This document shows positions 38,172-45,750 of a stretch of 64,000 bases of DNA, piece after piece. Source of the stretch: Candidatus Omnitrophota bacterium. GTDB taxonomy: Bacteria; Omnitrophota; Gorgyraeia; Gygaellales; UBA12090. Below the pieces are notes generated by a model. It ran no database searches and was not told where the DNA came from. It saw only the letters and a program-made list of their open reading frames with translations. The position numbers and the translations under genes were made by a program. The first letter of the stretch is position 1, and each line of letters begins with the position of its first letter. The DNA is taken from the NCBI GenBank assembly GCA_030674475.1, contig JAUSCZ010000017.1, positions 46,264-110,263 on the forward strand. Reading direction: 5' to 3'.

Positions 38172-38528
38172 TTACGGCGAAGTTTCAACATTCTGATAAG
38201 CTAATAACATAGTCTTATATGTTTCCAACTCCTCTTTGAGCCTTTCGTATTCGCGGGTTTTCCAGTCAAGGAACTGCTGGATAAGCTGAAATTTTATCCT
38301 AATTCCCTGAGGGGTGAGCAGATACATATAGCTTAACTTATTCTTGGCATTCTTGAAGTTTTTTGCCTCTATTATGCCCTTGTCAATGAGGGCGTTGAGG
38401 AAGTAGTTAATCTTGCCCAGGCTTATTTTGAGTTTCAGGGCCAGGTCGCGCTGGGTTATGGCGGGATTTTGCTCTAACTCTTTGATAACAGAGAGGATTT
38501 TTTCGTGGTGCAATATGTCGGATTTCAT
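38172..38528 (-). CDS. MarR-type winged-helix transcriptional regulator (EPS-locus-associated family), copy 1
   Basis: MKSDILHHEKILSVIKELEQNPAITQRDLALKLKISLGKINYFLNALIDKGII is the wHTH. The true start is cat at 38526-38528, and the longer ORF-track start is an extension. 90% identical to copy 2. Confidence 0.65.
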   Translation of the reverse strand: MKSDILHHEKILSVIKELEQNPAITQRDLALKLKISLGKINYFLNALIDKGIIEAKNFKNAKNKLSYMYLLTPQGIRIKFQLIQQFLDWKTREYERLKEELETYKTMLLAYQNVETSP

Positions 38529-38574
38529 AGAAAAACTATGGGTCGATGGTCTATGGTTCATCTTTTTAAAATTC

Positions 38575-38958
38575 TTAAAGCAACCGTATAATCCCTTTTT
38601 CAAAATTAATCGTCAACTTGAAATTCTTCAAAAAGTCTAAGCCTAAAAGTCCATCTACAAAACCCTCTTCAGGTAAATCATGGCAAGCGACTTCTAAATT
38701 CTTCATTGTCTTACCTAACGCTTTAATACTTTTTAAACTTACCACTGGAACAATTTCAATTCCACTCCCGGTTACAATACGAGTACGGGAAGGGGAACCT
38801 CCCGGATCGCAGCCAATAGCTTCAGCTGCCTCAAAGGGAATCATAGTTCGCGAACAACCCGTGTCTAACGCTAAACGCAAGGTCCGTTCGGCATTCTTCC
38901 TAATTGTGCCCTCTATAATGATTATGGGAAATTTATGGTTAAAAGAAGTCTTTGACAT
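38575..38958 (-). CDS. Retropepsin-like (clan AA) aspartic protease
   Basis: LALDTGCSRTMIP contains the D-T/S-G catalytic motif in a retropepsin-like context; 127 aa. Confidence 0.7.
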   Translation of the reverse strand: MSKTSFNHKFPIIIIEGTIRKNAERTLRLALDTGCSRTMIPFEAAEAIGCDPGGSPSRTRIVTGSGIEIVPVVSLKSIKALGKTMKNLEVACHDLPEEGFVDGLLGLDFLKNFKLTINFEKGIIRLL

Positions 38959-39188
38959 TAAAACATTACCACCAAATCCTTTGGTATGGGCCCGGTATAA
39001 TCGATAGCAAGCGGTTCTTTATATTTCATCTGCTCTCTGTATATAGTGTCTCTCTTTTTACTGTGAGCAATTACCGCCCCCTTGCTTAACCGGTTCATCT
39101 TATCAAACTCATAGTTCGCCAGCAAGATCCACTCTTTAGGAAATCTCTTCCTAATGCTTATTAAGCTTTCCACTCTACTTTTTACCAT
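38958..39188 (-). CDS. Small partner protein of the retropepsin-like protease (hypothetical)
   Basis: 76-aa ORF translationally coupled (ATGA-type overlap) immediately upstream of the protease. Confidence 0.35.
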   Translation of the reverse strand: MVKSRVESLISIRKRFPKEWILLANYEFDKMNRLSKGAVIAHSKKRDTIYREQMKYKEPLAIDYTGPIPKDLVVMF

Positions 39189-39221
39189 TTTTCTTTACCT
39201 CCTGATTTAAGTTAAGAAAGT

Positions 39222-39330
39222 ATTTTGCTCTAACTCTTTGATAACAGAGAGGATTTTTTCGTGGTTTAAGATGTCGGATTTCATGGGAAAATCAAAGGTC
39301 GATAGTTTATAGTCAATAGTCAATGGTCCG
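39222..39330. repeat. Cassette-junction repeat, copy (partial: regulator-5'-end homologue + heptamer tract, no hairpin)
   Basis: ttttgctctaactctttgataacagagaggatttt...atgtcggatttcat followed by gtcgatagtttatagtcaatagtcaatggtcc. Homologous to 38440-38565, 39923-40106, 42530-42665, 46133-46262 and 47168-47305. Confidence 0.7.
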
Positions 39331-39431
39331 GAAAAAAATTACTTCTTTAAATAATTTCGAAAGGCGTGCAGCATTTTTGAGATGTCTTCACAACACTTAT
39401 AAAATAAATCAAATTCTGTAGATTTTCTGTG

Positions 39432-39907: not shown

Positions 39908-40054
39908 TTAAACGATTTTATCCTTGTAAGTGCGATAAATCGCACCGCTACCGCGAATTTTCCGAATAAGTTTGCGCTGGGTTATAGCGGGGTTTTGCTC
40001 TAACTCTTTGATAGCAGAGAGGATCTTGTCGTGGTTTAATATGTCGGTCTTCAT
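39908..40054 (-). CDS. Truncated divergent paralogue of the MarR-EPS regulator (~48-aa mini-ORF) embedded in junction repeat
   Basis: MKTDILNHDKILSAIKELEQNPAITQRKLIRKIRGSGAIYRTYKDKIV. The first ~30 aa match the regulator N-terminus. The divergent tail LIRKIRGSGAIYRTYK is shared with the copies at 46133-46262 and 47168-47305. Confidence 0.4.
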   Translation of the reverse strand: MKTDILNHDKILSAIKELEQNPAITQRKLIRKIRGSGAIYRTYKDKIV

Positions 40055-40106
40055 GGGAAAATCAAGGGTCGATAGTCTATAGTCGATAGTCAATAGTCAA
40101 TGGTCC
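39923..40106. repeat. Cassette-junction repeat, full copy (hairpin GTGCGATAAATCGCAC + regulator-5' homologue + (GTCNATR)5)
   Basis: The hairpin at 39930-39945 has a 6-bp stem and a TAAA loop. Then comes cgctaccgcgaattttccgaataagtttgcgctgggtta..ttttgctctaactctttgata.cagagaggat. Then the heptamer tract gtcgata gtctata gtcgata gtcaata gtcaatg. Confidence 0.7.
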
Positions 40107-40173
40107 AGAAAAAAATTACTTCTTTAAATAATTCCGAAAGGCATGTAGCATTTTTGAGATGTCTTCGTAACGC

Positions 40174-40473
40174 TTATAAAAAAATGCCTTTAATTTTGTT
40201 TTTGGTTCCCGCTTTAGCGGGATAACACAGGCTAATATTGATCTTTTCATATAATGTTTCAGGGGCAATGTCAGCGCCATTTGGCCAGGCAATTGTACCG
40301 CCTTCAATTTTTGCTTTTTTGAAGAATTGTAAATTCTTTAATGGCTTAAAAATATATCCTTTCCTAATGTACTCTATAAAATTCACATCTCCACCTTTAC
40401 CATCATCAAACATAATATAATAAACATAATTATTTTTATACTTAATTGTTTTTACTTCATTCATATCCCACAT
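40174..40473 (-). CDS. DUF2442 family protein (second copy)
   Basis: [17 protein letters not shown]-terminal motif. Confidence 0.55.
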
Positions 40474-41845: not shown

Positions 41846-42130
41846 TTATTTCCTAATCGTCCAAAAATCAGCAGCTTGGGTTTCTAAATATTCGTAGGGC
41901 ATAGTGAAGTAGCCGCATTTACCCCAAGTCTTGCCCCAGGAATTTCGGATTAAGAAACATTTTTGTTTTTGGTTGTATCCGACTGCTAACACCGCATGTC
42001 CGCCCACCGGCCGTTCATTCTTTTTAGGCATAGGGACAATGCCGGTGCGTTTGACTTTTTCGCTCTCAAAGGATTCATAAACTGTAAAACCGAAGGTAAA
42101 AGGATAACCATCTGCCAGACAAACGAGCAT
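41846..42130 (-). pseudogene. Papain-like (C1) cysteine peptidase, C-terminal fragment
   Basis: GGHAVLAVGY...IRNSWGKTWGKCGYFTMPYEY carries the His/Asn half of the catalytic triad. The N-terminal Cys-containing half is absent. Confidence 0.55.
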
Positions 42131-42149: not shown

Positions 42150-42245
42150 CTTCTCCATAATTCTTCCTGTTGTTTCTCCATTAATTTTCCTATCTCATCA
42201 CTATGGTCATAATAACAAGAAAGGGCATCGTAACTTACGTAATCT
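42150..42245 (-). pseudogene. DUF433 gene remnant (C-terminal fragment)
   Basis: Minus-strand translation YVSYDALSCYYDHSDEIGKLMEKQQEELWRR* aligns to the C-terminus of the DUF433 protein at 46815-47153 (SAIYDALSYYYDHADEIERLMEKNREDQWKK). Confidence 0.4.
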
Positions 42246-42628
42246 TAGTACGTTGCGTCCACATTGCTTAATTTAGGTAAAACTTCGGCATTTTGATAAG
42301 CTAATAACATGCTCCTGTAGGTTTCCATTTCTACCTCAAGCCTTTCGTATTCGCGGGTTTTCCAGTCAAGGAACTGCTGGATAAGCTGAAATTTTATCCG
42401 GATTCCCTCTGGCGTTAACATATACATATAGCTCAACTTATTCTTGGCATTCTTGAAGTTTTTGGCCTCTATTATACCCTTGTCAATGAGGGCGTTGAGG
42501 AAGTAGTTAATCTTGCCCAGGCTTATTTTGAGCTTCAGGGCCAGGTCGCGCTGGGTTATGATGGGGTTTTGCTCTAATTCTTTGATAACAGAGAGGATTT
42601 TTTCGTGGTTTAATATGTCGGGTTTCAT
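42245..42628 (-). CDS. MarR-type winged-helix transcriptional regulator (EPS-locus-associated family), copy 2
   Basis: MKPDILNHEKILSVIKELEQNPIITQRDLALKLKISLGKINYFLNALIDKGII...; near-identical to copy 1. Confidence 0.65.
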   Translation of the reverse strand: MKPDILNHEKILSVIKELEQNPIITQRDLALKLKISLGKINYFLNALIDKGIIEAKNFKNAKNKLSYMYMLTPEGIRIKFQLIQQFLDWKTREYERLEVEMETYRSMLLAYQNAEVLPKLSNVDATY

Positions 42629-42694
42629 AGAAAAACTATGGGTCGATAGTCGATGGTTCAGGAACCGTTTTTTAAGAATTTTCGCGCGAATTTG

Positions 42695-44826: not shown

Positions 44827-45092
44827 TTTATTTTACCTCCGCGATTTGTACCAATAGTGCCTATGGAATTAAAGAAAATACCTGGTAAGCCGCAAAGCAC
44901 TTGTTCTTCTTTATTAGGGTACTGGGGTTTTCTGTCGGGATAATACAAATTCTTCCCTTTTAGGGAATTTTCTTGCTAAGGCGTATGTCTGGATTGCCCG
45001 GTCAAGCCGGGCAATGACAAAAGTGGAGTTTCACGACAGTCCCCTGACTCATTCCATACCTTTAGTTCCTCAAATTTAAAGGGCATAGGATA

Positions 45093-45130
45093 GTCGATGG
45101 TCTATGGTCTATGGTCTATGGTCTATGGTT
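45093..45130. repeat. Heptanucleotide tandem repeat (GTCNATR)5-6
   Basis: gtcgatg gtctatg gtctatg gtctatg gtctatg gttta. The same unit occurs in 2-5 copies directly upstream of each regulator/mini-ORF start (38541-38562, 39298-39329, 40064-40106, 42641-42660, 46248-46262). Confidence 0.8.
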
Positions 45131-45750
45131 TAACTTAAACTAAAATCAGTAAGCTCTTTCTTAATGATTGCATCGTCAACTTCAAATCCCTTCAGATAGT
45201 CAACCTTTTCCGTGTAGTCTATATCTTTAAAATAGCTCAGTTGCGCCCGGAATAACTTTTCATTAAATTCAGAGCCAAAGATGTGTCTGGTTTTTTTAAT
45301 AATCTTATGGATATCGTAATAGTCTTTCATTACAAAGTAAAGGTCCACATAATCTTTCCACTTCGCCCTCCGGCCTAAGGCATAAGCCTTCATTGCCGCT
45401 AAGGTTAATAAATCCGGCAGTTTTATCACCTGATCAAAATTTTTAGAAAAGCTTATCTTAAATGGATAGCAAAAAAATGTAAATCTTACTTTATGGATAA
45501 CCACTGTATATTGGCCATCTTCATCTCTTAAGACACTATCTATCTTTTTAAACTGTATAATTTTTCTTCTAATTTTCCAATTATCAAACTCTTTATCGGT
45601 AAAAAGATCGAAATCAATTGAACGGCGATGACCCGCAAAAATAGCTATGGCTGTTCCTCCCGCTAAACCAAAGTCTTTAGAAAATGACTTAACCAGCGGT
45701 AAAAGCTCCAGCTGCTCAGCGGTTAGAATCTCCGGATGAATTCTACGCAT
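45130..45750 (-). CDS. AbiEii/AbiGii-family nucleotidyltransferase toxin (type IV TA)
   Basis: GLAGGTAIAIFAGHRRSIDFDLF motif. Confidence 0.6.
   Translation of the reverse strand: MRRIHPEILTAEQLELLPLVKSFSKDFGLAGGTAIAIFAGHRRSIDFDLFTDKEFDNWKIRRKIIQFKKIDSVLRDEDGQYTVVIHKVRFTFFCYPFKISFSKNFDQVIKLPDLLTLAAMKAYALGRRAKWKDYVDLYFVMKDYYDIHKIIKKTRHIFGSEFNEKLFRAQLSYFKDIDYTEKVDYLKGFEVDDAIIKKELTDFSLS

Follow-up and report, generated by a model that had tools for sequence, protein, structure and literature searches.

A retropepsin-like aspartic protease encoded with an overlapping DUF5678 partner: a candidate toxin-antitoxin-like module in Omnitrophota and other bacteria

Two small overlapping genes were analyzed in a 64,000-nucleotide stretch of DNA from a Candidatus Omnitrophota bacterium (contig JAUSCZ010000017.1; this whole stretch is referred to as the window). 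Both genes are located on the minus strand. The upstream gene (38958..39188, ATG start) encodes a protein of 76 amino acids (aa), here called the partner, and the downstream gene (38575..38958, ATG start) encodes a 127-aa retropepsin-like aspartic protease. The first is proposed to be an antitoxin or inhibitor, and the second is proposed to be a toxic effector. Both open reading frames (ORFs) were found where the original prediction had placed them, and they share one base, which belongs to the stop codon of the partner and to the start codon of the protease (TAATG, 38956..38960). A strong Shine-Dalgarno sequence, AGGAGG (39198..39203, minus strand), is positioned 9 nt 5' of the partner ATG, whereas the protease ATG is preceded only by a weak Shine-Dalgarno-like element. 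The junction and the unequal ribosome-binding signals are consistent with translational coupling of the two genes, as had been predicted. The D-T-G motif that had been noted is likewise present. It lies within LALDTGCSRTMIP and corresponds to D32-T33-G34 of the full-length protein (codons at 38857..38865, read from 38865 to 38857 on the minus strand).

Comparison of the downstream protein with Pfam models revealed matches to Asp_protease_2 (PF13650, clan AA; 48.1 bits, E value of 2e-12, cut-off of 24.3) and to gag-asp_proteas (45.3 bits, E value of 1.4e-11, cut-off of 28.2), and 50 database relatives were identified. Because the protease passes the Pfam threshold and both proteins of the pair have database relatives, the two ORFs can be regarded as real genes and not as chance ORFs. 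The scores of the protease against TIGR02281 (26.9 versus a cut-off of 57.95) and TIGR03698 (18.0 versus 57.35) were below the NCBIfam cut-offs, which places it outside both subfamilies as modeled. In an alignment of 31 homologues, the D and the T of the DTG motif were invariant, the G was present in at least 90% of the sequences, and the TGSG and VDGLLGLDFL blocks were also kept. TGSG probably represents the flap, and VDGLLGLDFL contains the second motif of this single-domain protein, hydrophobic-hydrophobic-Gly-x-Asp, which aligns to the "GLDLL" region of Ddi1. The conservation of the catalytic DTG and of the other retropepsin motifs suggests that protease catalysis is under selection.

Searching for solved structures by sequence revealed the Ddi1 retropepsin domains and ApRick from Rickettsia as the closest relatives of the protease. 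The RVP domain of Ddi1 and the Rickettsia enzyme (APRc/ApRick; MEROPS clan AA) are likewise single DTG domains of about 100 to 130 aa with a hydrophobic-hydrophobic-Gly-x-Asp motif. The relationship is, however, distant (E value of about 1e-5). Ddi1 additionally carries UBL and UBA domains and APRc is membrane anchored, and unlike the window protease, neither has a DUF5678 partner. Retropepsins are active as homodimers.

The partner had been described as a protein with no recognisable family. This holds for single-sequence searches, in which the partner of the window yielded no Pfam (E value of ≤1), NCBIfam, or PADLOC match, but it fails at the profile level. The partner has 14 close database relatives, one of which, an identical protein (100%) from a Candidatus Omnitrophota metagenome-assembled genome (MAG), is annotated as "hypothetical protein", and a family profile search retrieved 583 representatives. 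The DUF5678 model PF18929 was matched by 25 of 84 partner relatives, and hhalign comparison of the partner family with PF18929-annotated proteins gave 99.4% (E = 1.5e-21, 69 columns). At the profile level, the partner is thus classified as a divergent DUF5678 protein. One PF18929-annotated protein has the same overlapping protease neighbor, and the adjoining protease of the canonical PF18929 protein is kept on three contigs. The partner profile also gave a four-stretch match to a 1,261-aa protein with repeats of about 50 aa (P0074), which is almost certainly a compositional or repeat artifact and not a relative.

A structural model of the partner was generated with AlphaFold2. In a first run with 12 close homologues, one of five models exceeded 50 in predicted local distance difference test score (pLDDT). 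That run was superseded by one based on the 84-sequence alignment, which predicted a β-α-β-β-α-β topology followed by a C-terminal tail (pLDDT of 92.4). No match to PDB sequences was obtained with the partner-family profile. The tail is the part of this otherwise confident model with the lowest confidence. In the window it comprises Y64 to F76 (YTGPIPKDLVVMF; 38961..38999, minus strand) and corresponds to the family motif Y-T-G-x-[IML]-P-x-[DGN]-x-A-[VI]-[VI]-L-COOH, and 96 of 113 partners terminate exactly at this conserved segment. The hydrophobic tail is plausibly an inhibitory element that contacts the protease.

Variants of the partner were found among the matches to its profile. Tandem DUF5678 domains, two per polypeptide, occur in P0066, P0081, P0090, P0109, P0152, and P0199, which suggests that the partner acts as a dimer, as would suit a dimeric protease. 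The contig that encodes P0081 ends 14 nt past the gene. In fusion proteins of about 250 aa (P0145; also P0170 and P0182), a phycobilisome-protein domain (PF00502) precedes a C-terminal DUF5678 domain, and a gene for a retropepsin-like protease lies directly downstream of the fusion gene (P0145; L175 2501-3660 and L176 2501-3660). In such variants, the module could be equipped with a sensor, a decoy, or an adaptor.

Co-occurrence of the two genes was sampled in two ways. Because the sequences in the broad partner alignment were too diverse for back-translation, the genome scan was anchored on the protease, and metagenomes were scanned with a tighter sub-clade of partners. The protease motif was searched in one genome per species (GTDB), which yielded 242 relatives in 242 species genomes. 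The best 80 of the 242 loci, chosen by protease similarity only, were analyzed as the protease-anchored set. The metagenome scan provided 80 partner-anchored loci, of which 8 were removed because they offered too little room or were cut by contig ends, leaving 72 informative loci.

In the protease-anchored set, a partner-family ORF was located immediately upstream of the protease and on the same strand in 78 of 80 loci, nearly always with full coverage of the family hidden Markov model (HMM). Of the two exceptions, L059 has its protease at the edge of a contig, and the protease of L078 carries a frameshift. Thus, whenever the protease is intact and there is room upstream, an intact partner is present (78/78 genome loci), and, seen from the protease, the association is essentially obligate across phyla. 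The relatives are distributed over at least 10 phyla, including Omnitrophota, Zixibacteria, Planctomycetota, Acidobacteriota, Cyanobacteria, Nitrospirota, Latescibacterota, and Deltaproteobacteria-type lineages. One locus (L068) comes from a cultured organism, Tundrisphaera lichenicola P12. Intact pairs show a 4-nt start/stop overlap of the ATGA/GTGA type in 96 of 112 cases (86%).

The partner-anchored set revealed a different picture. A full-length protease was present in 32 of the 72 informative loci, a broken protease in 28, and no protease in 12. Among the broken proteases, 15 are full-length remnants with frameshifts or stops at varied positions, and 13 have suffered deletions or truncations, some of which remove the DTG region. 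Individual loci illustrate this range, with a truncated protease in L093, a remnant in L090, and no protease in L092. The contrast between 78/78 and 32/72 is significant (Fisher p = 6e-17). Neutral decay proportional to gene length predicts about 38% broken partners, whereas none was observed (0/78). Orphan partners score on the family HMM as well as paired partners. Since a toxin is not tolerated without its antitoxin, and antitoxins outlive decayed toxins, this asymmetric decay is the pattern that a toxic protease would be expected to leave behind, and it points to the protease as the harmful member of the pair.

Several members of the pair were found to be missing from public gene calls. 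An intact protease with a GTG start that overlaps the partner stop was uncalled in L091 (2707-3108), as was an 82-aa partner in L006/L033 (1115-1363), and the protease remnant in L090 (2638-2844) was unannotated. Because pair members and remnants are often uncalled, annotation-based counts of the module are too low. A 2.7-kb contig of a Thermosynechococcaceae cyanobacterium MAG (L071) carries two partner/protease pairs, at 1004-1605 and at about 1850-2373.

The two proteins also co-diverge. A Mantel test gave r = 0.86, a value reached in 0 of 2,000 permutations, with equal mean divergence of partner and protease. Co-divergence is compatible with direct binding and is not proof of it. Analysis of inter-protein covariation (mutual information with average product correction, 111 pairs, effective number of sequences of 82) revealed a single outlier, partner position 59 with protease position 26 (z = 8.8). 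Position 26 adjoins the DTG strand of the protease. With so few sequences and such phylogenetic structure among them, these values cannot support a contact map.

Analysis of the flanking ORFs revealed 165 Pfam families among 150 neighbors, which suggests that the module is autonomous and independent of its context. The one recurrent site was found in Planctomycetota. In Pirellulales and Phycisphaerae MAGs (L012, L014, L016, L024, and L046, and others among L010-L089), panC is positioned directly upstream of the pair in the same orientation, and in both loci in which the downstream gene was checked (L012 and L024) it is panD. In total, 9 neighbors match pantoate ligase and 7 match aspartate decarboxylase. 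Self-processing of PanD is not hydrolytic. A link of the pair to PanD maturation was considered from this gene order and set aside because the arrangement is limited to one phylum and because of the nature of PanD processing.

A pair of this type has already been catalogued. The defence system candidate PDC-M08 of PADLOC combines a DUF5678-like protein (component A) with a retropepsin-like protease (component B) in the same order, adjacent and on the same strand. It corresponds to cassette CAS_00054 (FAM_03167>>FAM_00414), with 381 occurrences in RefSeq. In total, 145 PDC systems were nominated for their embedding in BREX, DISARM, or type I restriction-modification (RM) loci, and they are termed "untested phage defence candidates" (Payne et al., 10.1101/2024.01.29.577857). 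The window protease matched the PDC-M08B model PDLC04405 (1e-15), with its residues 1-124 covering positions 1-123 of the 127 in the model. The PDC-M08A models were matched by 19 of 84 partner-family members (best E value of 1.2e-6), and the partner of the window gave no match. Consequently, a run that requires matches to both models would probably miss the window copy. From these comparisons, the window pair appears to be a divergent member of PDC-M08. It differs from the catalogued cassettes in that it stands in an array of toxin-antitoxin (TA) cassettes and is not embedded in BREX, DISARM, or RM genes. The literature searched contained no functional account of DUF5678 or of PDC-M08, in agreement with the earlier remark that such modules are poorly characterised, and a search on the Pfam and TIGR accessions of the pair retrieved no characterization. 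The sole related finding concerned a protein with a retropepsin domain that is linked to type III CRISPR loci in archaea.

The favored interpretation of these observations is that the pair constitutes a type II TA-like module in which the partner keeps a harmful protease effector under control; we assign to it a probability of about 0.5. According to this model, the single-domain retropepsin-like protease encoded by the downstream gene is expected to be active as a homodimer and would harm the cell when unrestrained. The DUF5678-fold protein encoded upstream would be made first and in at least equal amount, and it would silence the protease by binding it directly, most likely by means of its conserved hydrophobic C-terminal tail, which would occupy the substrate cleft or a site close to it. 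If the partner were lost or inactivated under stress, during phage infection, or together with the locus, the protease would be set free to cleave cellular or viral proteins, and growth would stop. A TA-or-defence function had been suggested originally. The TA part of that suggestion is favored by the obligate pairing, the gene order and overlap, the co-divergence, the variable contexts, the asymmetric decay, and the match to PDC-M08, whose independent nomination from embedding in defence loci is also counted in favor of the TA-like interpretation; the defence part is weakly supported. The conserved catalytic motifs, the tandem partners, and the proteases kept beside the phycobiliprotein fusion and the canonical PF18929 protein likewise count for the TA-like module.

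Comparison with known type II TA systems revealed further similarities. These systems likewise consist of two small, co-directional, overlapping genes with the antitoxin gene first, are patchily distributed across phyla in variable contexts, and show a downstream gene that never occurs without the upstream one together with an upstream gene that often survives alone. The window pair likewise stands among classical TA cassettes. In contrast to type II systems, an aspartic protease takes the place of the toxin in this model, no DNA-binding domain can be recognized in the putative antitoxin and its charge is not conserved, and the module is absent from the plasmid and phage collections and is stably embedded between panC and panD in Planctomycetota. 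To our knowledge, aspartic proteases are not a characterized toxin class. Staphopain and staphostatin are an operon-encoded protease and its dedicated cytoplasmic inhibitor, and pro-domains of proteases can act in trans. As an analogy only, the concept is alike, since a self-damaging protease is co-expressed with a small specific blocker of its active site. The β-α-β-β-α-β topology of the partner with its C-terminal tail recalls subtilisin pro-domains, again by analogy of topology only. However, neither staphostatin nor the pro-domains show detectable sequence or fold similarity to the pair, the proteases belong to another class, and nothing indicates secretion in the present case.

A number of observations weigh against the TA-like interpretation. 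The two anchored samples were drawn from different collections (genomes and metagenomes) and partly from different clades, and an obligatory cofactor that also served a second, independent function would give rise to the same asymmetry of decay. The immediate neighbors in the 80 genome loci are mostly housekeeping genes and seldom belong to defence families. In a collection of 2.9 million viral contigs and in phage genomes, the module is practically missing, it was absent from the plasmid collection searched, and the recurrent panC-pair-panD site looks like long-term stable retention rather than a selfish mobile element. Searching with the partner model by Foldseek revealed no significant match in the PDB (best E = 1.2, TM-score of <0.35) and no significant fold match in BFVD, and nothing in the model marks the partner as an inhibitor. 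The top non-significant matches were ferredoxin-like β-α-β-β-α-β domains, including a subtilisin pro-domain chain (TM-score of <0.35). A Phd/YefM antitoxin fold, which had been guessed from the order of secondary-structure elements, was rejected in these Foldseek comparisons. The partner has no helix-turn-helix, ribbon-helix-helix, AbrB, or Phd domain according to Pfam, nor does its fold have a significant match. Its isoelectric point ranges from 4.1 to 11.1 across the family, which argues against a conserved DNA-binding role. These features give no support for autoregulation by the partner, a usual trait of type II antitoxins. Finally, the literature searched contained no characterization of DUF5678, of PDC-M08, or of a bacterial retropepsin acting as a toxin, antitoxin, or anti-phage module.

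Some of these observations would be accommodated if the pair carried out regulated proteolysis, with the partner as an obligatory adaptor, activator, or folding chaperone that, for example, delivers substrates, and if the cleavage served housekeeping or regulation and were not toxic. A protease unable to work without its cofactor would also not be expected to be retained alone, the well-conserved orphan partners may have a function of their own, and the housekeeping neighbors and the stable placement between panC and panD in two planctomycete classes fit such a role. The phycobiliprotein-like domain fused to DUF5678 beside a protease gene also resembles an arrangement of cargo and adaptor. Nevertheless, the module is patchily distributed across phyla and has no conserved third gene or pathway, and the protease is broken or lost in 56% of the partner-anchored loci, which suggests that its activity is readily dispensable. 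The position of the window copy among TA cassettes and the overlapping, antitoxin-first gene order, which is typical of TA modules, also speak for a TA-like function. A regulated-proteolysis pair is considered less likely than the TA-like module, of which it is the main rival. A dedicated anti-phage system that acts by abortive infection, in the strict sense of PDC-M08, would require the partner to sense a phage cue and to free the protease so that it kills the cell or cleaves phage proteins. This is a special case of the TA-like interpretation and is compatible with its genetics. Both components match PDC-M08 models, the partner through its family members, and the nomination from BREX, DISARM, and type I RM loci with the many RefSeq occurrences adds to this. 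All 145 PDC systems are, however, candidates by bioinformatics only (10.1101/2024.01.29.577857), defence families are rare next to the 80 genome loci, and no BREX or RM genes were found beside the window pair within the region examined. An exclusively anti-phage role appears rather improbable.

The remaining explanations fit the decay pattern and the genomic context poorly. The tail of the partner is conserved, hydrophobic like retropepsin substrates, and exactly C-terminal, and it is the least confident part of the model, so the protease might be a maturase that cleaves it off, yielding a free peptide or an active partner. However, the surroundings show no consistent presence of modification enzymes, transporters, or immunity genes, and the whole partner is a conserved globular domain. 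A precursor would hardly be expected to persist with undiminished conservation where its protease is dead or absent, as the orphan partners do. We consider this reading to have a slim chance of being correct. Reversed roles, with a toxic small protein and a protease that destroys it as an enzymatic antitoxin, have a precedent in enzymatic antitoxins known elsewhere. They predict the opposite of the observed asymmetry: the small protein is intact beside a broken or missing protease in 40 of 72 loci, whereas an intact protease was never found without the small protein in informative genome loci. This explanation was rejected as very improbable. The same applies to a retroelement or virus remnant, that is, a gag-protease fragment with no cellular function, which is suggested by the gag-asp_proteas match and by a weak match to PHROG "protease". 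There is no reverse transcriptase or integrase near the pair, viral contigs and phage genomes essentially lack it, and the two genes are conserved, co-diverging, and apparently under selection in at least 10 phyla.

Bacterial retropepsin-like proteases are widespread, and almost none has a known role. For one large subfamily, represented in 242 species genomes, the TA-like interpretation offers a testable genetic logic, namely, that cells tolerate the protease only if its specific DUF5678 partner is present. If it is true, aspartic proteases would join the toxin and defence effectors, a function could be assigned to DUF5678 and a mechanism to the candidate PDC-M08, and a natural scaffold for protein inhibitors of retropepsin-type enzymes would become available. 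A TA class with a protease toxin is plausible. A more specific proposal is that the module represents the first class of TA or abortive-infection systems with an aspartic-protease toxin, in which an antitoxin of a new fold plugs the cleft or blocks dimerization by a pseudo-substrate tail, and N-terminal fusions such as the phycobiliprotein-like domain serve as sensors or decoys that tune the release. This proposal is tentative and more doubtful than the TA-like module itself. New in the present analysis are the assignment of the partner to DUF5678, the near-obligate pairing, the asymmetric decay, the conserved tail, and the copies missed by models and gene callers. Current models and gene callers overlook many copies: the window partner escapes the Pfam and PADLOC models, and several proteases and partners are uncalled in public assemblies.

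The surroundings of the pair were analyzed as well. The TA-cassette array reported in the original prediction is present. It extends over about 38.2 to 47.2 kb of the window with all TA-type cassettes on the minus strand, and polysaccharide-biosynthesis genes are located on its flanks. The array contains a DUF4160/DUF2442 cassette that weakly resembles DhiT/DhiA, a second DUF2442 gene, a HEPN and nucleotidyltransferase cassette, a PIN_3 gene with a small upstream ORF, an MNT-HepT fusion, two DUF433 genes, an AbiEii gene with a small partner, and a DUF4258 gene.

Repeats derived from a MarR-family EPS-associated regulator (TIGR04176; MarR-EPS) are distributed over the array. Repeat D1, the 5' end of the regulator gene, occurs in four copies with 77 to 92% identity (38443-38557, 39199-39313, 39969-40083, and 42543-42657). 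Two of these copies head full-length MarR-EPS genes (38172 to about 38527 and 42245-42628), which share 90% identity over 300 nt. The remaining copies are two orphan 5' fragments that end at different points, and a 110-nt repeat, D3, is positioned upstream of both (39298-39407 and 40075-40184). One fragment (39199..39313, minus strand, by alignment of repeat D1) lies directly upstream of the DUF5678/protease pair, where it forms a 25-codon leader ORF (39283..39206), and the other heads the DUF4160/DUF2442 pair. It looks as if a unit of promoter plus leader was duplicated and now heads different TA cassettes, and the fragment upstream of the pair may carry such a duplicated promoter. A scan for the sigma-70 consensus was uninformative, with 7 sites versus 7.9 in shuffled sequence.

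The mechanically called ORF of the first MarR-EPS gene (38172-38603, minus strand) uses a TTG start at 38603 and overlaps the 3' end of the protease gene. Comparison with the second copy and with the repeats located the real start at an ATG near 38527 (MKSDIL...), about 48 nt past the protease stop. No terminator-like site was found on the minus strand between the protease stop and this start, and the pair and the regulator gene may be co-transcribed. A motif of the GGTCGAT/GGTCTAT type is present just upstream of MarR-EPS starts or fragments (38541-38566, 40067-40092, and 42641-42666) and in tandem at 45092-45131; it may be an operator for the MarR-EPS regulator. A 94-aa ORF beside the second MarR-EPS copy (41846-42130, minus strand) matches only the C-terminal part (136-204 of 220) of the papain-family model Peptidase_C1 and is apparently a gene fragment stranded in the TA array.

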